From a virus (taxonomy: Duplodnaviria > Heunggongvirae > Uroviricota > Caudoviricetes), in the IMG/VR virus record IMGVR_UViG_2534682338_000003, positions 1 to 21,334 of that record: a DNA stretch of 21,334 nt; one strand, written 5' to 3'. The position numbers were made by a program, and so were the translations under genes. This document shows, piece after piece, positions 1,329 to 14,006 of the stretch (position 1 is its first letter; every line of letters begins with the position of its first letter). Under the pieces are notes generated by a model that saw only the letters and a list, made by a program, of their open reading frames with translations, made no database searches and was not told where the DNA came from.

Positions 1329-3104
1329 ATGTCCCAGTACGACAAAGCCACGCAAACAGCAGGTTTAGTACGCATAACTAATCAATTAGAGTCTATATAC
1401 GGAACTTTTATTGATATGAAAGATATTAATTCCGTAGGAGAGCATAGGAAAGAAACTCTAATTACACGCTGTGTAGCTGCGCATGCAATCAGCTTGTATG
1501 GTGATGAACCAGACCCTGAGTTAGCTGCTAATGCTGTCTGCGATGGAAAAGATGATGGCGGGATAGATGCAGTTTATGTTAATAAAAATTCGAGAAAGAT
1601 AGTAATAGTTCAGTCAAAATATATTAAAAATGGCGACGGTTCTATAACCACAAGAGAATTCGGAAGATTCAAAGACGCATGCGCAAAAGTAATAGCCAGC
1701 GACTTTACAACATTTAACGAAAGGTTTTTAAGAAACAAAGACTCCATAATTGAAGCAATCTCAGGATTTACATATAAATGTATATGTGTATTTATATATA
1801 CAGGGGTTCATGAGCCAAGCGAAGAAGTAAAATCAGACATAGAGTTTTGGGAAAAGGTTCAGAATCGGTCTCTATTATTTAAAGATATAGAGAATAGAGA
1901 TGAGTATTCAGTGCTATTCGAGCCGGCAGGTATACAAGTGATAATGGATGGTCTTTCTAATGATCGATCAAAATCTATAAATGTTAGCAATGTTCACCTT
2001 GAAAGTTATGGAGAGATAGCAGAACCTTATAAAGCAATATACGGAACAATATCCGCAAGGATCCTATACGACTGGTGGGAAAAGTACAAGTACTCTCTGT
2101 TCGAGAAAAATATAAGAAGTGTCCTCGGTAATTCATCCATAAACTCTGGGATAAAGAAAACATTAAGTGAAAAGCCGGAGAATTTTTGGTACTATAACAA
2201 TGGGATAACTGCTGTATATAGTGATGTAGAAGAAAGCATGATCAACTTAAGTACAAGCAGGAAGTACGGGCTATTTAGTTTTAAAAGTCTGAGTATAATA
2301 AATGGAGCTCAAACTGTAAGCACTATTGGTGAAGTGTTCAACTCTTTACCCGAAGAAAAAAAAGATCTAATCAAGGTGAGCATTAGATTTATCAGTGCAG
2401 CAAAAGAAGATTTTTTAACCTCTGTCACTAAATTCAACAATACACAAAACAGGGTTACTGGAAGAGATTTCTCATCACAGAGGCCCGAGCAACAAAGAAT
2501 ACAAAGAGAAATAAACTTTATTGGCGGATATAGCTACAAACTACTCAGGCAAGAAGACTCCAGCCAGACAGGTGGTAATACCATTGATATTGATGATGCT
2601 TTAAACGCATTAGTGTGTGCCTCTAAAGATGAAACATTGATATCTTCCTTAAAACTAAATAGAGGACGTTTTTTTGAAAGCTGGGGAGGTCTTTATGAAA
2701 AAGTATTCCCAGCTGAAAATGGTCCTACCGGTTTAGATATAATAAATAAAGTAAATGCTTATAGATTAGCAAATGATATATTGCAAGAAAGTATAGTTAA
2801 ACTACTATCAGTAGATATGGAAAATCAGAAGCAGATTCATCAAATAATGATTCATGGAAATTATGTTTTAATATCCATACTCATGAATAAAATAGAAGTT
2901 TCCTCTGTGGAGAATCACATCTTCTCTTATAGCCGAAACGTTTCACTGGAGGAATGTATAGAGCTGGCTTCTGATACTTATAATCACATACAGGAAGTCT
3001 TCCCCAATAGTTATATAGCAAGATTCTTCCAGAACAGAGAAAAAGTATTAAATATTATTAATCATCTACTAGGTAAAGAGCAGATCATCGAATTGCAAGA
3101 GTAA
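1329..3104 (+). CDS. AIPR-family abortive-infection-type protein (591 aa) with an N-terminal PD-(D/E)xK-like nuclease motif
   Basis: ORF-track ORF; ATG after AGGAGCGCAAAGG; contains IINGAQTVSTIG (the NGxQT motif I associate with the AIPR domain) and upstream GIDAVYV...IVIVQSKY (D...QxK); markedly AT-rich relative to its neighbours. Confidence 0.75.
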   Translation: MSQYDKATQTAGLVRITNQLESIYGTFIDMKDINSVGEHRKETLITRCVAAHAISLYGDEPDPELAANAVCDGKDDGGIDAVYVNKNSRKIVIVQSKYIKNGDGSITTREFGRFKDACAKVIASDFTTFNERFLRNKDSIIEAISGFTYKCICVFIYTGVHEPSEEVKSDIEFWEKVQNRSLLFKDIENRDEYSVLFEPAGIQVIMDGLSNDRSKSINVSNVHLESYGEIAEPYKAIYGTISARILYDWWEKYKYSLFEKNIRSVLGNSSINSGIKKTLSEKPENFWYYNNGITAVYSDVEESMINLSTSRKYGLFSFKSLSIINGAQTVSTIGEVFNSLPEEKKDLIKVSIRFISAAKEDFLTSVTKFNNTQNRVTGRDFSSQRPEQQRIQREINFIGGYSYKLLRQEDSSQTGGNTIDIDDALNALVCASKDETLISSLKLNRGRFFESWGGLYEKVFPAENGPTGLDIINKVNAYRLANDILQESIVKLLSVDMENQKQIHQIMIHGNYVLISILMNKIEVSSVENHIFSYSRNVSLEECIELASDTYNHIQEVFPNSYIARFFQNREKVLNIINHLLGKEQIIELQE

Positions 3105-3108
3105 AAGT

Positions 3109-3132
3109 AAGAGCCACCTGCGGGTGGCTCTT
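3109..3132 (+). terminator. Rho-independent terminator after the AIPR gene
   Basis: AAGAGCCACC-TGCG-GGTGGCTCTT, a perfect 10-bp stem with 4-nt loop beginning 5 nt after the stop codon, followed by a T-rich stretch. Confidence 0.6.
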
Positions 3133-3481
3133 ACTTATTTGACGCTACCATATGCTCGCATTTGCCATAACATATGTTGCGTACGCTCAGAAATACGTGG
3201 AGGGCGTTTCTGGTCTAAAATCGTCAAGACACTCCATCATATATTCAGGAAATTGCTAATAATCGTGTAGGTGAATACTGCTTAAAATTCATATATATGA
3301 AATTGAACCTGTTGGCTTGCGTCGGACTTTGCGTATTAAAAGAAGTGCTGGTGGTGACTAGTGGTTGAGCTCCATTTCCACAGAAAAATCAGAGAAACCA
3401 TACCCAATAGTTGTATTGAATCACGGACGAGACAGCCTCATATTTATCAGGACTGGTGTACGTCCAATACAGGAGGTTGTG

Positions 3482-3571
3482 GTGCTGGTTCTCAAATGTG
3501 CGCTGGCTATTACGGCTGTAATGGCGATTTATTGTCTTGCTATTGTTCTTATGGATCGCCTTTCTGACTGA
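3482..3571 (+). CDS. Candidate 29-aa hydrophobic peptide (possible small membrane protein or type I toxin-like peptide)
   Basis: AGGAGG at 3471-3476, 5 nt before GTG 3482; translation (M)LVLKCALAITAVMAIYCLAIVLMDRLSD is a single predicted transmembrane helix; no homolog recognised. Confidence 0.25.
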   Translation: MLVLKCALAITAVMAIYCLAIVLMDRLSD

Positions 3572-3858
3572 TTTCATATTGGCGAGGTAAAGGTAGTTAA
3601 GTAGAATGGCTGCGGGTGCTTGAGGCTATCTGCCTCGGGCATGAACACCAAAGGCAGATAGAGAAAAGCCCCAGTTAACATTACGCGTCCTGCAAGACGC
3701 TTAACATTAATCTGAGGCCAATTTCATGCTAGACACATGTAGGTTAGCCTCTTACGTGCCGAAAGGCAAGGAGAAGCAGGCTATTGTTAACACCAAGCTG
3801 TAATGTCCCCTTTGAACCATTCTAAAATGTCCCCAGACAATTCTCTGGGGGATTTTTC

Positions 3859-5199
3859 ATGATCAAAGAGACTGTTACGATGAGTCATAAGGAACTCCAC
3901 CGACTTCAGATTATTCAGGAGTCAATTAATCGACATATTACTCAGGAACAAGCTGCGGCACGCATTGGCATTTCTATTCGGCAGGTTAAACGTCTGGTGC
4001 AACGGTATAGAAATGAAGGGCCTTCTGGTCTGGTTTCCCACCGACGTGGAAAGCGTCCTAATAATTCCTTTTCTACTGAATTCAGAGCAACAGTAATTTC
4101 ACTCCTCAAAGGCCGTTACGCTGATTTTGGACCTACGTTTGCGTGCGAAAAATTGCGCGAGATACACGGTTTATCTTTATCCGTTGAAACTCTCAGAAAG
4201 TGGATGATAGAAGAGGGGTTATGGCGTGAACGCCGTCGTAAAATTGCCCGTATATATCAACGCCGCATGCGACGACCATCTTACGGTGAACTGATCCAGA
4301 TTGATGGCTCACCTCATGACTGGTTTGAAAATCGAGGCCCCAGATGTACACTGATCGTTTTCATTGATGATGCCACCAGTGCGTTGATGGCGTTGCGTTT
4401 TGTGCCTGCTGAAACAACCCGGGCTTACATGGAAACCCTCCGGGGTTACCTTAATGATCATGGCGTACCGCTCGCTCTCTACTCTGATAGACACAGTATA
4501 TTCAGGGTAAATAACCCAGAGCGGGAAGGTGAGCTGACCCAGTTCACTCGTGCGATAAAGACACTGGGCATCGAGCCAATCCATGCCAACAGCCCGCAGG
4601 CAAAAGGGCGGGTAGAGCGCGCCAATCAGACACTACAGGACAGGCTGGTCAAAGAAATGCGGCTTCAGAATATCAGTGATATTGAAACAGCAAATGCATG
4701 GTTGCCGACCTTTATTGAAGCCTATAACAACCGGTTCGCTACGTCGCCTCGTACTACTGATAATGCTCATCTTGATGTGCACCATTCTGAAGAGGAACTG
4801 GGTTATATCTTCAGCCTACAGGCGAAGCGCGTTCTGTCTAAAAATCTCACTTTCCAGTACAAAAGCAGTGCGTTTCAGGTACGCAGTGAGAGCCGGGGAT
4901 ATCGACTTAGGCATTCGGTTGTTACTGTATGCGAGAACTTTGACGGTGAAATTAACGTTCTGTATGACGGGAAAGTGCTGGGCTGGGAAAAGTATGTTGA
5001 TGGCCCGGAGCCTATACCACTGGATGATGAAAAGAGTGTCCATGAACGAGTGGATAATGCCCGTATTGATTTACGCTCAAAATACTATGTTAAACCTAAA
5101 GCTGACCATCCCTGGCTTACGCGCCGAACGCAAAGTCATCAGCAAGTTAAGCCCCCGAAGTTACCTAAAAAGAAGCCTGATCCCGATAAAAAAGATTGA
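3859..5199 (+). CDS. DDE transposase, ISNCY/IS481-like (N-terminal HTH plus integrase catalytic core), 446 aa
   Basis: ORF-track ORF; N-terminus HKELHRLQIIQ...ISIRQVKRLVQRY is HTH-like, followed by an rve-type core (LIQIDGS...FIDDATS...SDRHSIF...GRVERANQTLQ); element ends not resolved. Confidence 0.8.
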   Translation: MIKETVTMSHKELHRLQIIQESINRHITQEQAAARIGISIRQVKRLVQRYRNEGPSGLVSHRRGKRPNNSFSTEFRATVISLLKGRYADFGPTFACEKLREIHGLSLSVETLRKWMIEEGLWRERRRKIARIYQRRMRRPSYGELIQIDGSPHDWFENRGPRCTLIVFIDDATSALMALRFVPAETTRAYMETLRGYLNDHGVPLALYSDRHSIFRVNNPEREGELTQFTRAIKTLGIEPIHANSPQAKGRVERANQTLQDRLVKEMRLQNISDIETANAWLPTFIEAYNNRFATSPRTTDNAHLDVHHSEEELGYIFSLQAKRVLSKNLTFQYKSSAFQVRSESRGYRLRHSVVTVCENFDGEINVLYDGKVLGWEKYVDGPEPIPLDDEKSVHERVDNARIDLRSKYYVKPKADHPWLTRRTQSHQQVKPPKLPKKKPDPDKKD

Positions 5200-5635
5200 A
5201 ACCAAGATCGATTCGGTTGAGTGCATATCCATTCATAGGGTAGATTCTTAAGTCGCGTTTCTGGTGTTCATTTTCGGGTGGTTTGTTACTTGTTTTACTG
5301 GGGATATGCCAGAAACGCGCTGAGTCAGTCTGGGCGGTGCGCGTAATGAGGCGTTATGGTAAATAGCCTATGCTAATGTCCGCTAAGAGCAAGAAGCGGA
5401 AGTTGGCAGTTTTGTGGACTGTCCCCACAAAAGTGACTACAGAAATAGTTGCAATTCATAATTGATCATGGGTTGTCAGTTAAACTCGTGGCGATTTAAA
5501 TAGACTAATTGGGAGTGCGTCCATTACTTATATCTTGTAATGTTAACTATCAGAAATGATACAAAGATAATATGTCTTTAAAGAAAAGGCTGATGGCGAA
5601 AAGTGGCCCGATGAGGGCCACAATACGGCTGTCAC

Positions 5636-5968
5636 TTAGACGTAAATATCAATGGTGCCAGCGGTATTTGTATCGTCTTTTTTCTCTTCTTTTTTATCAG
5701 GCTGAACTGTCGCGTCTTCATTCTTTTTCTCTGCCTGCTGCCTTAACAACTGCTCCAGTTGAGCCCTGAGGCTTTCAATTTGCTTCTGTACCAATGCAGC
5801 CATTTCTTTTTTCTGCTGTGTCGTCATCCCCTCTTCCGATGAGATTTTCCCAAGCTTTTCAGTCAGCACCTGAATTTGTCTTGTGATTTTGGCTATTTCT
5901 GATGTTCCTTCCGGGGCGGAGTTGTTTGAAATAACGGTTGAGGTATTTCCCTGAATTGTGACAGACAT
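5636..5968 (-). CDS. flxA: FlxA-like protein (FliA-regulated prophage protein), 110 aa
   Basis: ORF-track ORF beginning MSVTIQGNTSTVISNNSAPEG, matching my recollection of Qin-prophage FlxA; sigma-28-type promoter immediately upstream. Confidence 0.8.
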   Translation of the reverse strand: MSVTIQGNTSTVISNNSAPEGTSEIAKITRQIQVLTEKLGKISSEEGMTTQQKKEMAALVQKQIESLRAQLEQLLRQQAEKKNEDATVQPDKKEEKKDDTNTAGTIDIYV

Positions 5969-5991
5969 AGATTTCTCCTTTTAAAAAAGCA

Positions 5992-6018
5992 CTATCGGCA
6001 TGCACAAAAAAATCTTTA
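5992..6018 (-). promoter_or_regulatory. Sigma-28 (FliA) type promoter for flxA
   Basis: Minus strand reads TAAAGATT-N11-GCCGATAG against consensus TAAAGTTT-N11-GCCGATAA; the -10 element ends about 24 nt upstream of the flxA ATG. Confidence 0.6.
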
Positions 6019-6170
6019 ATCGTATTTCTTGTGTCATTAATTGTTTGATGTTCAGATTGTTTTCCTAGCGGGCTGGCGCGCCTCAGAAAGTAAAGCTTGT
6101 TGACAGGGGTAAACGTTCGGCAATAATTTTCTGCCGCATGCGGGTGTTGCATAAAACGTGCTACGTTCCT

Positions 6171-6476
6171 TTATCGACAGGTCAGGTCACCGCTCACCCG
6201 CCGACGAGAAAGCAACACTGACATGCTAAAGCAAAAAATAGATGAATAAGTTGAGTTGTGCATATGTAGCCTGACCGTCACAAAGTATATGGTGTCTGTA
6301 CCAGTAAGATGATGGCCGGACTCTTTAAAAATGAGCTGACCTGCACAATACAGGATGGACTTAGCAATGGCTGCTCCTGGCACAAAGCGGACAGTGATCA
6401 CCGTTCTTACGACTACTTTCTGACTTCCTTCGTGACTTGCCCTAAGCATGTTGTAGTGCGATACTTGTAATGACAT
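6171..6476 (-). CDS. ydfV: YdfV-like hypothetical ORF (101 aa), doubtful as a coding gene
   Basis: ORF-track ORF in the position and with the length I recall for Qin ydfV between flxA and relB; low-complexity and it runs across the relBE operator. Confidence 0.3.
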   Translation of the reverse strand: MSLQVSHYNMLRASHEGSQKVVVRTVITVRFVPGAAIAKSILYCAGQLIFKESGHHLTGTDTIYFVTVRLHMHNSTYSSIFCFSMSVLLSRRRVSGDLTCR

Positions 6477-6489
6477 TTGTAATTACAAG
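6464..6489 (+). promoter_or_regulatory. relBE operator/promoter inverted repeat
   Basis: CTTGTAATGACATTTGTAATTACAAG immediately upstream of the relB SD (AGAGGTG) and ATG at 6501. Confidence 0.6.
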
Positions 6490-6500
6490 AGGTGTAAGAC

Positions 6501-6740
6501 ATGGGTAGCATTAACCTGCGTATTGACGATGAACTTAAAGCGCGTTCTTACGCCGCGCTTGAAAAAATGGGTGTAACTCCTTCTGAAGCGCTTCGTCTCA
6601 TGCTCGAGTATATCGCTGACAATGAACGCTTGCCGTTCAAACAGACACTCCTGAGTGATGAAGATGCTGAACTTGTGGAGATAGTGAAAGAACGGCTTCG
6701 TAATCCTAAGCCAGTACGTGTGACGCTGGATGAACTCTGA
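6501..6740 (+). CDS. relB: RelB antitoxin (79 aa)
   Basis: ORF-track ORF MGSINLRIDDELKARSYA...KPVRVTLDEL; sits directly upstream of relE. Confidence 0.95.
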   Translation: MGSINLRIDDELKARSYAALEKMGVTPSEALRLMLEYIADNERLPFKQTLLSDEDAELVEIVKERLRNPKPVRVTLDEL

Positions 6741-7027
6741 TGGCGTATTTTCTGGATTTTGACGAGCGGGCACTAAAGGAATGGCGAAAGCTGGGCTCGA
6801 CGGTACGTGAACAGTTGAAAAAGAAGCTGGTTGAAGTACTTGAGTCACCCCGGATTGAAGCAAACAAGCTCCGTGGTATGCCTGATTGTTACAAGATTAA
6901 GCTCCGGTCTTCAGGCTATCGCCTTGTATACCAGGTTATAGACGAGAAAGTTGTCGTTTTCGTGATTTCTGTTGGGAAAAGAGAACGCTCGGAAGTATAT
7001 AGCGAGGCGGTCAAACGCATTCTCTGA
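6740..7027 (+). CDS. relE: RelE mRNA interferase toxin (95 aa)
   Basis: ORF-track ORF MAYFLDFDERALKEWRKLG...; its ATG overlaps the relB stop (TGATG). Confidence 0.95.
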   Translation: MAYFLDFDERALKEWRKLGSTVREQLKKKLVEVLESPRIEANKLRGMPDCYKIKLRSSGYRLVYQVIDEKVVVFVISVGKRERSEVYSEAVKRIL

Positions 7028-7098
7028 ACCAAAGCATGACATCTCTGTTTCGCACCGAAGGTGACACTTCTGCTTTGCGTTGACAGGAGAAGCAGGCT

Positions 7099-7254
7099 AT
7101 GAAGCAGCAAAAGGCGATGTTAATCGCCCTGATCGTCATCTGTTTAACCGTCATAGTGACGGCACTGGTAACGAGGAAAGACCTCTGCGAGGTACGAATC
7201 CGAACCGGCCAGACGGAGGTCGCTGTCTTCACAGCTTACGAACCTGAGGAGTAA
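7099..7254 (+). CDS. hokD: Hok-family membrane toxin HokD/RelF (51 aa)
   Basis: My own translation MKQQKAMLIALIVICLTVIVTALVTRKDLCEVRIRTGQTEVAVFTAYEPEE; below the ORF-track length cut-off; third gene of the relBEF arrangement. Confidence 0.9.
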   Translation: MKQQKAMLIALIVICLTVIVTALVTRKDLCEVRIRTGQTEVAVFTAYEPEE

Positions 7255-7323
7255 GAGACCCGGCGGGGGAGAAATCCCTCGCCACCTCTGATGTGGCAGG
7301 CATCCTCAACGCACCCGCACTTA

Positions 7324-7348
7324 ACCCGCTTCGGCGGGTTTTTGTTTT
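7324..7348 (+). terminator. Rho-independent terminator downstream of hokD
   Basis: ACCCGC-TTCG-GCGGGT hairpin followed by TTTTGTTTT. Confidence 0.6.
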
Positions 7349-7469
7349 ATTTTCAACGCGTTTGAAGTTCTGGACGGTGCCGGAATAGAATCAAAAATAC
7401 TTAAGTAGCGCGCAGGGATAAGAGGGATGGTCCCTTAAAGGGGAGAGCTAATTATCCGGAAGGATTCTG

Positions 7470-7721
7470 ATGATGAACATCGAAGAACTGCGTAAAATTT
7501 TTTGTGAAGATGGCCTCTATGCTGTGTGCGTTGAAAATGGAAATCTTGTTAGTCATTACCGCATTATGTGTTTGCGAAAGAATGGGGCTGCGTTAATTAA
7601 TTTTGTGGATGCTCGGGTCACGGACGGATTTATCTTGCGCGAAGGTGAGTTTGTCACTTCATTACAGGCATTGAAAGAGATCGGAATAAAAGCTGGCTTT
7701 TCTGCTTTTTCAGAAGAATAA
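7470..7721 (+). CDS. rem: Rem protein (83 aa)
   Basis: ORF-track ORF MMNIEELRKIFCEDGLYAVCVENG...; GGAAGG SD upstream; position after hokD as in Qin. Confidence 0.8.
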   Translation: MMNIEELRKIFCEDGLYAVCVENGNLVSHYRIMCLRKNGAALINFVDARVTDGFILREGEFVTSLQALKEIGIKAGFSAFSEE

Positions 7722-7787
7722 ACTCATCTACAATCTTGCGCGGGGCTGAACTCCCGCTGAGTAACACCGTGCCACCGGAGAAAACCG

Positions 7788-8066
7788 ATGGCACGCAACG
7801 CAAAATATTACAATTCTGATAATTCGCCCGTTCTTGCCTGCACGCACGGGCGGTATTCTCACGCATTCAAGTCTGAATGGTTCCAGCACCCTCCATGCAC
7901 TGCAGAACAGGCCGAATGGCTGATTCATTCTTACCGCAGGCGCGGGTTCGAGGTTAAGAAAGCTCTCAGTCTCGACTATCGGCACTGGATAATCTCTGTC
8001 AGGCTGCCTTATTCCGAACGCCCACCACGTGCGTCCCGCACTTTCCAGCAACGGATCTGGAGGTAA
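7788..8066 (+). CDS. Hypothetical 92-aa protein, translationally coupled to ydfU
   Basis: ORF-track ORF; GGAG 7 nt upstream of the ATG; its TAA stop (8064-8066) lies between the ydfU SD and the ydfU GTG start. Confidence 0.5.
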   Translation: MARNAKYYNSDNSPVLACTHGRYSHAFKSEWFQHPPCTAEQAEWLIHSYRRRGFEVKKALSLDYRHWIISVRLPYSERPPRASRTFQQRIWR

Positions 8067-8067
8067 C

Positions 8068-9117
8068 GTGCGGGTATTACTTAGACCTGTTCTGGTGCCT
8101 GAGCTTGGGCTGGTGGTCCTTAAGCCGGGCCGTGAATCCATACAGATATTTCATAATCCTCGAGTGCTGGTGGAACCGGAACCAAAAAGCATGCGTAATC
8201 TGCCATCCGGAGTCGTTCCTGCCGTTCGCCAGCCGCTGGCGGAAGACAAAACATTGCTGCCGTTTTTTAGTAACGAACGGGTGATTCGTGCTGCTGGCGG
8301 CGTTGGCGCATTGTCCGACTGGCTATTACGTCATGTTACATCCTGCCAGTGGCCTAATGGCGATTACCATCACACTGAAACAGTCATTCACCGTTATGGT
8401 ACCGGCGCAATGGTGTTGTGCTGGCACTGCGACAACCAACTGCGTGACCAGACATCGGAATCACTGGAGCTGCTTGCTCAACAAAATCTGACAGCATGGG
8501 TGATTGACGTCATCCGTCACGCAATAAGCGGTACGCAGGAGCGGGAATTATCTTTGGCTGAATTATCCTGGTGGGCGGTCTGCAATCAGGTGGTGGATGC
8601 ACTACCTGAGGCTGTATCGCGTCGTTCGCTGGGATTACCAGCGGAAAAAATCTGCTCGGTGTACCGCGAAAGCGACATCGTACCGGGAGAGCAGACCGCC
8701 ACCAGCATATTGAAACAACGCACAAAAAATCTTGCACCGTTGCCTTACGCCCACCAGCAACAAAAATCACCACAGGAAAAGACGGTGGTAAGCATCACCG
8801 TTGATCCAGAGTCTCCGGAATCTTTCATGAAGCTGCCTAAACGTCGCCGCTGGGTTAAGGAGAAATACACACGTTGGGTTAAGACACAGCCGTGTGCTTG
8901 CTGCGGTATGCCAGCCGACGATCCGCATCATCTGATTGGTCACGGGCAGGGCGGAATGGGAACAAAAGCACATGATCTCTTTGTGTTGCCTTTGTGCAGA
9001 AAGCATCACAACGAGCTGCATACGGATACAGTGGCATTTGAAGATAAGTATGGCTCCCAACTGGAGCTGATATTTCGTTTTATCGATCGCGCGCTGGCAA
9101 TTGGCGTACTGGCGTAA
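8068..9117 (+). CDS. ydfU: YdfU, DUF968 protein with a C-terminal HNH-like Cys/His motif (349 aa)
   Basis: Same frame as ORF-track 8029-9117; I prefer GTG 8068 because GGAGG sits at 8059-8063 and the length then matches the 349 aa I recall; motif CACCGMPADDPHHLIGHG...CRKHHNELH. Confidence 0.75.
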   Translation: MRVLLRPVLVPELGLVVLKPGRESIQIFHNPRVLVEPEPKSMRNLPSGVVPAVRQPLAEDKTLLPFFSNERVIRAAGGVGALSDWLLRHVTSCQWPNGDYHHTETVIHRYGTGAMVLCWHCDNQLRDQTSESLELLAQQNLTAWVIDVIRHAISGTQERELSLAELSWWAVCNQVVDALPEAVSRRSLGLPAEKICSVYRESDIVPGEQTATSILKQRTKNLAPLPYAHQQQKSPQEKTVVSITVDPESPESFMKLPKRRRWVKEKYTRWVKTQPCACCGMPADDPHHLIGHGQGGMGTKAHDLFVLPLCRKHHNELHTDTVAFEDKYGSQLELIFRFIDRALAIGVLA

Positions 9118-10517: not shown

Positions 10518-10817
10518 AAAAATTCCTTAATACTGATAACTTGGCGCACTATACACACGTTCCTGAAGAAAGCTATAGTTTTTTGATGGGGTTGAAGATG
10601 GCTGGATGTCTAAAATAAACATTGCTTCATATGTTCAACTATGCGTTAATGATTGCGTCGGTTTGAAGAACAGACGATATACGAAGTAGTTTACTAAAGC
10701 AGTTCTCATTTCAGGTGTTATTCACTTATTCCTTCTTTGAGTCTCTCCAATTAAGTACGAAGTCGTTTCTGTTATGCAAACCATTTATGCCGAAAGGCTC
10801 AAGTTAAGGAATGTAGA

Positions 10818-11033
10818 ATGTCAAATAAAATGACTGGTTTAGTAAAATGGTTTAACGCTGATAAAGGTTTCGGCTTTATTTCTCCTGTTGATGGTAGTAA
10901 AGATGTGTTTGTGCATTTTTCTGCGATTCAGAATGATAATTATCGAACCTTATTTGAAGGTCAAAAGGTTACCTTCTCTATAGAGAGTGGTGCTAAAGGT
11001 CCTGCAGCAGCAAATGTCATCATTACTGATTAA
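10818..11033 (+). CDS. cspB: Cold-shock protein CspB (71 aa)
   Basis: ORF-track [37 protein letters not shown]...; long 5' leader typical of cold-shock genes. Confidence 0.9.
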
Positions 11034-11314
11034 AATTCATCGCTCGTCTGTATACGATAACGAAGAAGGCTGATGCCTGAGTAGAGATACGGACAGAGTA
11101 GTGAATATTGGATCTCTTTAATAAAAAGTAAGGAGGTCCAATACATGAAACAATGGCTAGCATATTTGGCAAAATCTTAATCAGGAAAAGTATGCTAACC
11201 ATTGTGGTGAAGTGCAGGTTTGCTGCATGAATAGTTTTACAGCAGAAGCTAACTGCTGGCATGGCAAAACAAAGTGCGTAAGTGGATGACTCCCACAAAA
11301 AGCACCACAATCTC

Positions 11315-13342: not shown

Positions 13343-13705
13343 GGTAATATTAAATCGGAACATTTACATCGCGGAATGTAAAATTTAAATAAAAAGGACT
13401 CTTCCATGAGCCAAAATTCCTGAAATCTTAAGGGTAAGATAAAAGGTCTTAATCAGAATGACACGTTATTATTAATAAATAAAGCTATTCTTTCATTGCT
13501 GTGTTTTTCTTTACAAAAGTAATCCTTGCTATGGGTGGTTAATCATGCGTTAATGGTGTTCTGGTTTGTTACAAATTTATCTGAAGCAGTCATTGTTATA
13601 ATTTTATTATTTGTACCTCTTGAGATTTCCTTGTTGGTTTTTCTCTCTGATATTTTTTTTCGGACCATTCTGCCCAAGGGCTAATTTCTTCAAAAGGTAA
13701 TAATT

Positions 13706-13918
13706 ATGTCTAACAAAATGACTGGTTTAGTGAAATGGTTTAACCCTGAAAAAGGTTTTGGTTTCATCACGCCGAAAGATGGCAGCAAAGATGTGTTTGT
13801 CCATTTCTCAGCAATTCAGAGCAACGATTTCAAAACATTAACTGAGAATCAGGAAGTTGAATTTGGTATTGAGAACGGACCTAAAGGTCCTGCCGCTGTT
13901 CATGTAGTGGCGCTTTGA
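13706..13918 (+). CDS. cspI: Cold-shock protein CspI (70 aa)
   Basis: ORF-track [37 protein letters not shown]...; long AT-rich 5' leader. Confidence 0.9.
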
Positions 13919-14006
13919 GGTAGACAATATTACAAACCATATTCACTTTAGATGCCCGTGTTGTCATGGTTCCCAGTATAGAACATCATCTTTTGATGTT
14001 TCTGAC

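Follow-up and report, generated by a model that had tools for sequence, protein, structure and literature searches.

The small open reading frame (ORF) considered here occupies positions 3482–3571 of a 21,334-nucleotide stretch of DNA (hereafter, the window) from IMG/VR virus record IMGVR_UViG_2534682338_000003. Its closest described relative is XECs145, a "novel small gene" of Escherichia coli O157:H7 Sakai identified by RIBOseq among 465 translated small ORFs (Hücker et al. 2017, PMC5597208). In the first condition of that study, XECs145 has 79.1 reads per kilobase per million (RPKM) for RNA and 346.1 RPKM for RIBOseq, with a ribosomal coverage value of 4.35 and a coverage of 0.99; the ribosomal coverage value is 1.14 in the second condition and 0.01 in the third, the order of conditions in Table 1 being LB, BHI control and BHI stress, and the product is predicted to be an inner-membrane protein (PMC5597208). 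XECs145 contains the O157 form of a 34-amino-acid peptide that shares 48% identity with the window peptide over 29 residues, including the motif ALA..AV.A.YCL..V.LMDRL. Both have one predicted transmembrane helix and a strong Shine-Dalgarno (SD) sequence, and each is found in a lambdoid prophage, immediately before a hokD-type locus. XECs145 is, however, five residues longer with an acidic N-terminus (MSDDI...), follows another small hydrophobic ORF without a promoter of its own, and is succeeded by a 20-bp palindrome before the hok promoter, with its stop codon 74–76 nucleotides (nt) from the hok transcription start (+1) versus 42–43 nt for the window type. It further differs from the window allele in having ribosome footprints.

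The DNA next to the small ORF also has a described counterpart, hokW-sokW of Sp5/933W (Takada et al. 2021, PMC8621323), which is homologous to window positions 3579–3784 (94% over 203 nt). The 933W locus carries an unrelated hydrophobic ORF of 27 residues (MTWPEAF...YSICRWR) in place of the small ORF, whereas in the window it is the hok ORF that has been displaced by a transposon. With the enterobacterial type I toxins (Hok/Gef, Ldr, Ibs, ShoB, TisB, DinQ and ZorO) the window ORF shares its size, a single hydrophobic helix and a polar or charged end, as well as its setting on a mobile element beside a genuine hok/sok locus. It differs from them in having no family match, no antisense partner that could be found, a short and variable 5' untranslated region (UTR), an exposed strong SD and a translated homologue. 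MgtS, AcrZ, KdpF, PmrR and CydX are non-toxic small inner-membrane regulators encoded in the core genome and have known partner proteins. The window ORF resembles these in its length of approximately 30 residues, single transmembrane helix, own SD, proneness to be missed in annotation and probable expression in growing cells, but is unlike them in being prophage-borne and confined to Escherichia and Shigella.

The comparisons described below indicate that the small ORF is probably a real, translated gene for a small membrane protein and not an antisense-silenced toxin. It lies in the early-right (nin) region of Qin-like lambdoid prophages.

Sequence, conservation and expression signals of the small ORF

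The small ORF and its signals are as follows:
3416–3421, plus strand: TTGAAT, candidate −35 hexamer of a promoter belonging to the small ORF itself, inferred from conservation
3439–3444, plus strand: candidate −10 hexamer CATATT, with a predicted transcript start near 3450
3471–3476, plus strand: SD sequence AGGAGG, read from the window sequence
3482–3571, plus strand: small ORF with GTG start, 29 codons and TGA stop, encoding MLVLKCALAITAVMAIYCLAIVLMDRLSD, a predicted single transmembrane helix

The sequence and the list of ORFs bear out the starting point of the original prediction, which was that AGGAGG stands 5 nt before a GTG opening a hydrophobic ORF of 29 codons. The spacer is TTGTG (3477–3481), and the GTG at 3482–3484 is followed by 28 sense codons to give (M)LVLKCALAITAVMAIYCLAIVLMDRLSD, with TGA at 3569–3571. 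An additional GTG at 3479, on which the original prediction was silent, begins just 2 nt after the SD. The highest Kyte-Doolittle mean over 19 residues of the peptide is 2.58, well inside the range of transmembrane helices, and an exact copy is deposited in GenBank as a "hypothetical protein" (OSK45992.1). The likelihood of a chance occurrence was estimated from 2,000 dinucleotide shuffles of the 722-nt spacer, counting both strands. AGGAGG with a start codon 4–9 nt further on and an ORF of at least 25 codons arose in 1.45% of shuffles. When the weaker motif GGAG was accepted but a hydrophobic stretch was demanded (mean Kyte-Doolittle value of 2.0 or more over 19 residues), the frequency was 0.45%. 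Judged from the window sequence by itself, the combination of SD, start and ORF is uncommon, but not extraordinary.

The small ORF is under purifying selection as a protein. Among 129 copies recovered from E. coli loci and IMG/VR contigs it is intact in 119, and no homologous copy contains a frameshift or stop codon. At 3482 every lineage starts with GTG apart from one (L011), which has ATG, and the neighbouring codon at 3479–3481 varies freely (GTG, GCC, TAT, AAC, GTC, GTT, ATC and ATG). The L011 lineage also carries a deletion of 3 nt, in frame, inside the ORF. Outside the pattern used for the search, variable sites at codon positions 1, 2 and 3 number 8, 6 and 17, respectively, and the variants comprise 19 synonymous versus 15 non-synonymous changes where 27% would be expected to be synonymous (p = 4e-4). 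All replacements are conservative and hydrophobic (A/V/T, V/I/L, M/V/I and C/G/F). A six-frame control identified the small-ORF frame as the only one that is both open (24 of 24 haplotypes) and enriched in synonymous changes (p = 0.001); the antisense frame that shares its third positions shows a weaker synonymous echo, yet is closed in all haplotypes. Divergence affects 10–20% of sites in the small ORF and up to 60% in the preceding 50 nt. Pairwise ratios of non-synonymous to synonymous change (pN/pS) are mostly 0.12–0.6 with a median of approximately 0.27. Loci derived from BLAST searches, which are free of bias from the search pattern, give the same picture.

Other reading frames and structures in the same segment were considered and rejected. 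The frame of the small ORF is open in the 5' direction as far as a TTG at 3365, giving 68 residues, but neither this extension nor the upstream starts chosen by some gene finders (37–68 residues) are conserved in relatives, and the L011 lineage has a stop codon there. An in-frame ATG is found five codons upstream in some lineages, yielding forms of 34 residues, and the corresponding codon in the window is ATA. A hydrophobic ORF of 23 residues at 3297–3368 has a start that is not conserved and is disrupted by a 14-nt deletion in relatives. On the minus strand, a 62-residue ORF at 3389–3577, annotated in one phage record, is open in 20 of 24 haplotypes but is not enriched in synonymous changes (8 synonymous versus 28 non-synonymous, p = 0.19). 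A structured RNA in place of a coding sequence was likewise discarded, given that a terminator-like hairpin at 3506–3525 is not kept in the L010 lineage and that folds of the whole transcript are not significant. PasA or another prophage small RNA does not fit the location: PasA, which is often within 10 kb of Sok, adjoins holin, lysozyme and sialate-esterase genes (Pas paper), not the nin region.

Upstream of the SD, the arrangement TTGAAT-17 nt-CATATT has the pattern of a moderate sigma-70 promoter that would start transcription near 3450. The sequence TTGAAN is kept in most of the 10 lineages with diverged upstream regions, while the 17-nt spacer varies. Mean column identity reaches 0.92 in both the SD and the −10 hexamer. 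The −35 hexamer has 0.77, compared to 0.65 for the spacer and 0.59 further upstream. The SD takes the forms AGGAGG, GGGAGG, AGGAGA and AGGGGG at a constant distance of 5 nt in nearly all lineages, the exceptions being the rare L060 lineage (AGAAGA) and L016, in which the distance to the start is 7 nt.

A profile search with the small-ORF family matched only Escherichia proteins, of 28–68 residues, and the family is restricted to Escherichia and Shigella and consists of two branches, the 29-residue branch of the window and a 34-residue branch beginning MSDD.... The latter is the diverged group returned by the profile search, MSEDILLAMEGALAVAAVMAIYCLVVFLIDRSGG and MSDDISLAMEGALAVIAVVGVYCLVVFLMDRLGN, with 48–52% amino-acid identity and 63–71% nucleotide identity to the 29-residue branch; pN/pS between the branches is 0.3–0.56, and V13, Y17 and L23 are invariant throughout the family alignment. 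The locus of MSEDILLAMEGALAVAAVMAIYCLVVFLIDRSGG (P0059) is a non-prophage chromosomal islet with the order cybC, a cytochrome c peroxidase gene, the small ORF, hok, a BOF-domain gene, mrp and metG. Here the ORF has AAGGAGG and a TTG start (L145), and a full Rfam hok leader is found 76 nt downstream. MSDDISLAMEGALAVIAVVGVYCLVVFLMDRLGN is present in 732 genomes, mostly O157:H7 and other enterohaemorrhagic E. coli, at a median of 3 places per genome, and is annotated by PGAP, immediately before hokD, under the accession WP_001278450.1. Both its homology and its location just ahead of a hokD-type leader place the window ORF in the family of WP_000960667.1, WP_001278450.1 and XECs145. As the RIBOseq values for XECs145 indicate, the 34-residue homologue is efficiently translated in the growing O157:H7 Sakai lysogen.

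In O157-type loci a perfect 20-bp palindrome, GATATGGGAATTCCCATATC, is found between the 34-residue ORF and the hok promoter (L165; L251, approximately 1130–1160), with a variant at 3115–3134 of L145. No T-run follows it on either strand, so that a terminator seems less likely than a site for protein binding or a hairpin for RNA processing. The window allele is without this palindrome.

Considered together, the conserved SD and start, the in-frame indel, the synonymous bias and the footprints on a homologue support the original prediction of a single-helix hydrophobic peptide and identify its ORF as a genuine translation unit. A number of points weigh against this reading. The last eight codons are fixed by the search pattern in most of the sample, and for this reason the tests were also run outside the pattern. 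Because the sequences are related and recombining, the counts do not represent independent events, and the ORF is so short that each statistic draws on few sites. The candidate promoter agrees with the consensus at 8 of 12 positions, where the scan required at least 9/12, its −35 hexamer is absent from two lineages (L093 and L111), and the contrast in conservation between promoter and spacer is modest. A hairpin scan detected no terminator between the small ORF and the hok promoter. The footprints belong to a homologue at 48% identity, which lies behind another small ORF without a separate promoter.

With these points in mind, the small ORF is best described as part of a module of approximately 180 bp that would comprise the candidate sigma-70 promoter, a 5' UTR of approximately 30 nt, the strong SD, the GTG start and the ORF. 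The peptide would be made in the lysogen from its own promoter and, since the small ORF has the same orientation as the early-right genes, could also be made in lytic growth by read-through of the early-right operon. It would then insert into the inner membrane as a single-pass protein and may act as an accessory ("moron"-type) small membrane protein that most likely binds to another membrane protein, of the host or phage, or modulates it.

The adjacent hok/sok leader and alternative explanations

According to the original prediction, the small ORF lies between the AIPR terminator and the transposase gene in an otherwise unassigned spacer. The position is correct but incompletely described, and the spacer is not unassigned: it also holds a hok/sok leader (3614–3785), part of a type I toxin-antitoxin remnant with hok promoter, leader, mok start and Sok gene located 43 nt downstream of the small ORF. 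The features of this region are as follows:
1329–3104: AIPR gene (PF10592)
3105–3136: hairpin after AIPR, separating the small ORF from the upstream gene
3579–3607, plus strand: hok promoter (−35 TTGGCG at 3579–3584, 17 nt, −10 TAGAAT at 3602–3607), from a consensus scan
3614–3784, plus strand: hok mRNA leader (Rfam RF01794), ending at the "AT" of the hok ATG
approximately 3664–3734, minus strand: Sok antisense RNA gene, placed by position from sokW of phage 933W (AF125520)
3726–3803, plus strand: truncated mok frame from the ORF list, the mokW start mapping to 3726

The assignment of this neighbouring element, as distinct from the small ORF, to hok/sok is supported by a full-length covariance match and a correctly placed promoter. 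The RF01794 match extends over 3614–3785 on the plus strand and covers model positions 1–157 of 157 with 112.5 bits, versus a gathering score of 59. The promoter is the sole sigma-70 match of at least 9/12 within 3050–3900 and is placed as required for a 5' end of hok mRNA at 3614. Positions 3582–3784 align without gaps to phage 933W (94% over 203 nt), and the hok ATG maps to 3783. At least 80% of the query 3100–3860 is matched in 38 E. coli genomes. In the uninterrupted relatives the match runs on into annotated hokD, with a coding sequence start equivalent to 3783, whereas the match of the window to such loci stops after the "AT" of the hok ATG. The small-ORF stop is 8 nt before the hok −35 hexamer, which places the ORF outside both the hok transcript and the region shared with 933W. 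The mok frame starts normally at 3726, runs into the insertion sequence (IS) described below and stops after 25 codons; translation begun at mok would now yield a short chimeric product and would no longer open the start of hok.

The linkage between the small ORF and hok was assessed in two samples. Among the 129 copies, 106 have an intact small ORF followed by the hok leader, with the stop codon at a fixed 42–43 nt from hok +1; 13 have an intact small ORF without hok, and in the remaining 10 hok is present and the 5' part of the ORF is replaced by unrelated DNA. For the second sample, 120 viral contigs were fetched by means of the hok leader alone and the types of sequence upstream of hok were tallied by hand:
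40 of 120 contigs: exact pattern of the window ORF
4 of 120: variants of the window ORF
18 of 120: 34-residue branch, preceded in tandem by a 27-residue hydrophobic ORF
17 of 120: 27-residue ORF alone (MTWPEAF...YSICRWG)
the rest of the 120: remnants of the window ORF in which other DNA has taken the place of the 5' part, or no hydrophobic ORF

The regions upstream of K-12 hokB and hokC contain no hydrophobic ORF of at least 18 residues, which rules out the small ORF as a general rule for all hok loci. Its association with hok is thus frequent in the prophage hokD/hokW class, but neither universal nor obligatory. The 27-residue ORF of 933W-type loci, MTWPEAFANVGTVMAVVLVVYSICRWR, is unannotated (L003 1408–1491; also L152, L164, L198 and L216). 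It overlaps the stop codon of the upstream gene (ATGA), ends 42 nt before hokW +1 and is conserved in many Stx-type prophages. It was rejected as a homologue of the small-ORF family (hhalign probability 3%).

One explanation of this arrangement, which we consider unlikely, is that the ORF is a third component of prophage hok/sok, acting as a co-toxin of Hok, a modulator or immunity peptide, or a cis element that tunes the hok promoter by read-through. The fixed distance to hok +1 in 106 of 129 copies would be accounted for in this manner, as would the finding that the 34-residue branch, at 48–52% identity, also immediately precedes hok, in O157 prophages as well as in the chromosomal islet. 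The unrelated 27-residue hydrophobic ORF holds the same position in 933W-type loci, approximately 79 of 120 hokD/W-type loci (roughly two-thirds) carry one of these ORFs, and the small ORF and the hok promoter are not separated by a terminator. Each partner is, however, found without the other (13 intact ORFs lack hok, and 10 hok loci have lost the 5' part of the ORF), so the small ORF, though genetically linked to hok, is probably not an obligate part of the hok/sok mechanism. Roughly one-third of the prophage hok loci, as well as K-12 hokB and hokC, are without such an ORF, and the adjacency can be explained by tight packing of the nin region together with physical linkage. In the window itself the hok ORF has been displaced by 3.3 kb, but the small ORF remains complete and does not differ from copies that adjoin an undamaged hok. 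The related proposal that the small-ORF family and the unrelated 933W-type ORF are membrane partners which set the threshold or timing of Hok damage, as co-toxin or antidote, seems improbable as well; if it were true, the two-part model of hok/sok would be incomplete for the hokD/hokW class.

The original prediction drew a resemblance to type I toxins, and in this form, as a membrane-depolarising peptide silenced by a still unrecognised antisense small RNA, we judge the proposal to be quite unlikely. The 29-residue peptide, with its Kyte-Doolittle value of 2.58, does conform to the generic definition of a type I toxin as a small hydrophobic membrane peptide. It is short and very hydrophobic with a charged C-terminal tail, like Fst, Ldr and TisB, and it adjoins a real type I locus. 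Its start codon is not ATG in most lineages (GTG, or TTG in L145), and the minimum-free-energy fold pairs the SD with CCUUUCUG at the 3' end of the ORF. The folds, however, are no more stable than those of shuffled sequences (z = −1.46 for 3450–3580 and −0.65 for 3450–3500), and the putative anti-SD is absent from the 34-residue branch, both of which speak against sequestration of the SD by mRNA structure. The predicted 5' UTR is short, at approximately 30 nt, and is the most variable part of the module. Searches of Pfam and NCBIfam, including the toxin families Hok/Gef (PF01848), Ldr, Ibs, TisB, Fst and others, gave no match at E ≤ 10 for either the 29- or the 68-residue translation, and no PHROG family reached this cut-off. 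When the peptide and two related small-ORF types were compared with PHROGs, Pfam and NCBIfam, only sub-threshold generic transmembrane matches were obtained; those to KdpF, SecE and ATP synthase subunit c concern the related small ORFs, not the window peptide, and reflect generic transmembrane-helix similarity only.

Nor did an Rfam comparison and a promoter scan reveal an antisense partner. A complementary small RNA, which the original prediction suggested seeking on the opposite strand, does exist nearby in the form of Sok, but this pairs with the hok leader and not with the small ORF. The small ORF itself is covered by no RNA family, and on the strand opposite 3440–3600 no Rfam family was matched apart from an echo of the hok hairpin at 20 bits, far below the gathering score of 59. 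The match (3530–3672, minus strand) stems from the near-palindromic hok 5' hairpin, and a second sok-like RNA at this site was rejected on the same grounds. No minus-strand promoter reached the threshold in a consensus scan, although the scan is of low sensitivity and missed the Sok promoter too. Silence in growing cells, judged on the homologue XECs145 only, is not observed: at a ribosomal coverage value of 4.35 and a coverage of 0.99 it is among the better-translated small ORFs. Such heavy translation is unlike that of a silenced toxin and disfavours this explanation.

It is very improbable that there is no gene at all and that what is conserved is regulatory DNA ahead of the hok promoter, or a recombination flank, with an incidental frame. 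In favour of this view, the ORF is unannotated by PGAP in most genomes, its 3' 25–35 nt stay joined to the hok promoter even where the rest is replaced, and its brevity leaves all statistics with few sites. Against it, the third-position bias and synonymous enrichment are specific to the small-ORF frame, the start switches from GTG to ATG, the deletion is in frame, the SD is conserved at fixed spacing, the module persists without hok, and the 34-residue branch conserves the amino-acid sequence at 63–68% nucleotide identity and is observed to be translated.

A probable IS1202-family insertion within hok

That the small ORF now adjoins a transposase gene is most simply explained by insertion of an IS1202-family unit into the neighbouring hok locus. 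The features of the insertion are as follows:
3769–3784: AGGAGAAGCAGGCTAT, the left of two exact 16-bp direct repeats (target-site duplication), the other being at 7085–7100
3785–7085, plus strand: 3.3-kb IS1202-family transposon-like unit with TGT...ACA ends and terminal inverted repeats
3859–5199: transposase of 446 residues with helix-turn-helix (HTH_28) and rve_3 domains
5636–5968, minus strand: flxA
6501–6740: relB
6740–7027: relE
7085–7100: right copy of AGGAGAAGCAGGCTAT, which supplies the SD and the "AT" of the hokD start
7099–7254, plus strand: hokD (relF), 51 residues, MKQQKAMLIALIVICLTVIVTALVTRKDLCEVRIRTGQTEVAVFTAYEPEE, intact and now behind relE

The bases flanking the two copies of AGGAGAAGCAGGCTAT differ on both sides. 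TGT at 3785 and ACA at 7083–7085 form the ends of the unit, with imperfect inverted repeats that match at 20 of 27 aligned positions (21 of 28 when counted by hand from the termini). No simple inverted repeat that would close the IS was found near 5250–5450; the end that matches lies at 7085, and no other site within 4900–7300 resembles a right end as well. From 7085 to 9117 the window aligns at 93.9% to an uninterrupted locus (L001) from its position 4170, that is, from the duplicated sequence onward, and this relative provides the empty insertion site. Elements of the IS1202 family have TGT...ACA ends, terminal repeats of approximately 24–28 bp and, in one subgroup, target duplications of 16–28 bp, with a transposase of approximately 440–460 residues containing helix-turn-helix and DDE domains (PMC10132070). 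The ends, repeats, flanking duplication of 15–16 bp and 446-residue transposase of the 3785–7085 unit all fit this family, with the caveats that the unit is twice the usual IS length and that ISEsa1 itself is reported to lack a detectable duplication. RefSeq names the same transposase gene as IS1202-like ISEsa1 family.

The gene order relB, relE, hokD/relF is continued in the window by rem and ydfU, which is presumably also the order in Qin of K-12. A minus-strand ORF within the 3.3-kb unit sits where we take ydfV to be in K-12 Qin.

In the simplest reading, a single insertion carried the 3.3-kb unit, with transposase, flxA, the ORF at the ydfV position and relBE, into the start region of hok. 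The insertion would have left the promoter, leader, mok start and sok at the left, where together with the small ORF they would form an orphan block upstream of the transposase, and the hok ORF with its SD at the right, behind relE. It would also explain why K-12 hokD is without its regulatory leader, mok and sok. The arrangement suggests that the "relBEF operon" arose when a relBE-carrying IS1202-family unit inserted at the hok start codon.

Two further observations were made near the left end of the unit. The motif AATGTCCCC occurs twice (3802 and 3826; region 3802–3834), and near-copies in the same orientation are found at 5375 and 5418 (5375–5426); these may be transposase-binding repeats. 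A terminator-like hairpin at 3830–3851, followed by ATTTTT, stands just before the transposase ATG and could shield the transposase from read-through originating at the small-ORF and hok promoters.

Prevalence, surroundings and significance

The segment 3290–3580 is found in 1,972 of 5,426 complete E. coli genomes at 77–100% identity and is almost always unannotated. PGAP annotates the small ORF only occasionally, as in strain GF8 (WP_000960667.1), and its products are labelled "hypothetical" or "putative membrane protein" in GenBank. Several diverged lineages lose homology on the 5' side of approximately 3437, and in others it stops approximately 25 nt past the small-ORF stop, without hok following. 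The gene directly upstream varies by strain and encodes AIPR, a restriction endonuclease, DUF2326, DUF4145, QueH, IS3 or hypothetical proteins, so that the small ORF marks the constant edge of a variable cargo site. The variable gene corresponds to 1329–3104 of the window and to equivalents in L008, L009, L011, L013 and L018; its flanks are constant, with a DUF977 gene on one side and the small ORF and hok on the other. This slot has the appearance of a hotspot for cargo or defence genes in Qin-like prophages.

Contigs of 2–3 kb with this E. coli prophage sequence (L019, L020 and L022) are filed under metagenome-assembled genomes of Collinsella, "Candidatus Scatousia" and Haemophilus, which probably reflects mistakes in binning and not a real host range. 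Elsewhere in the window, the cspA thermoregulator RNA (RF01766) gives two full-length matches at 10657–11049 and 13560–13945 (158.8 and 112.8 bits, respectively), which would imply two genes for cold-shock proteins flanking the lysis region of the prophage.

Searches of the main texts of the literature with the peptide strings and WP accessions returned nothing on function or on placement beside hok, and "The Cryptic Bacterial Microproteome" makes no mention of hok or prophages. Already known are the presence of the peptide in databases as a hypothetical protein and that of its homologue among the 465 translated small ORFs reported in 2017. What is new, to a modest extent, is the recurrent arrangement of the small ORF with hok and the proposed transposon origin of the relBE-hokD arrangement.

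The finding is a solid but modest addition that does not overturn current understanding. The "spacer" contains the regulatory half that the K-12-type relBE-hokD arrangement lacks, which corrects the local annotation, and if the insertion is read correctly, relBE travels on a transposon-like unit. If the small ORF is the gene that it appears to be, approximately one-third of sequenced E. coli carry a selectively maintained and almost never annotated gene for a 29-residue membrane peptide that prophages express, and one more family would be added to the catalogue of bacterial small membrane proteins. Its placement beside hok/sok raises the question of whether prophage hok loci work with accessory peptides.

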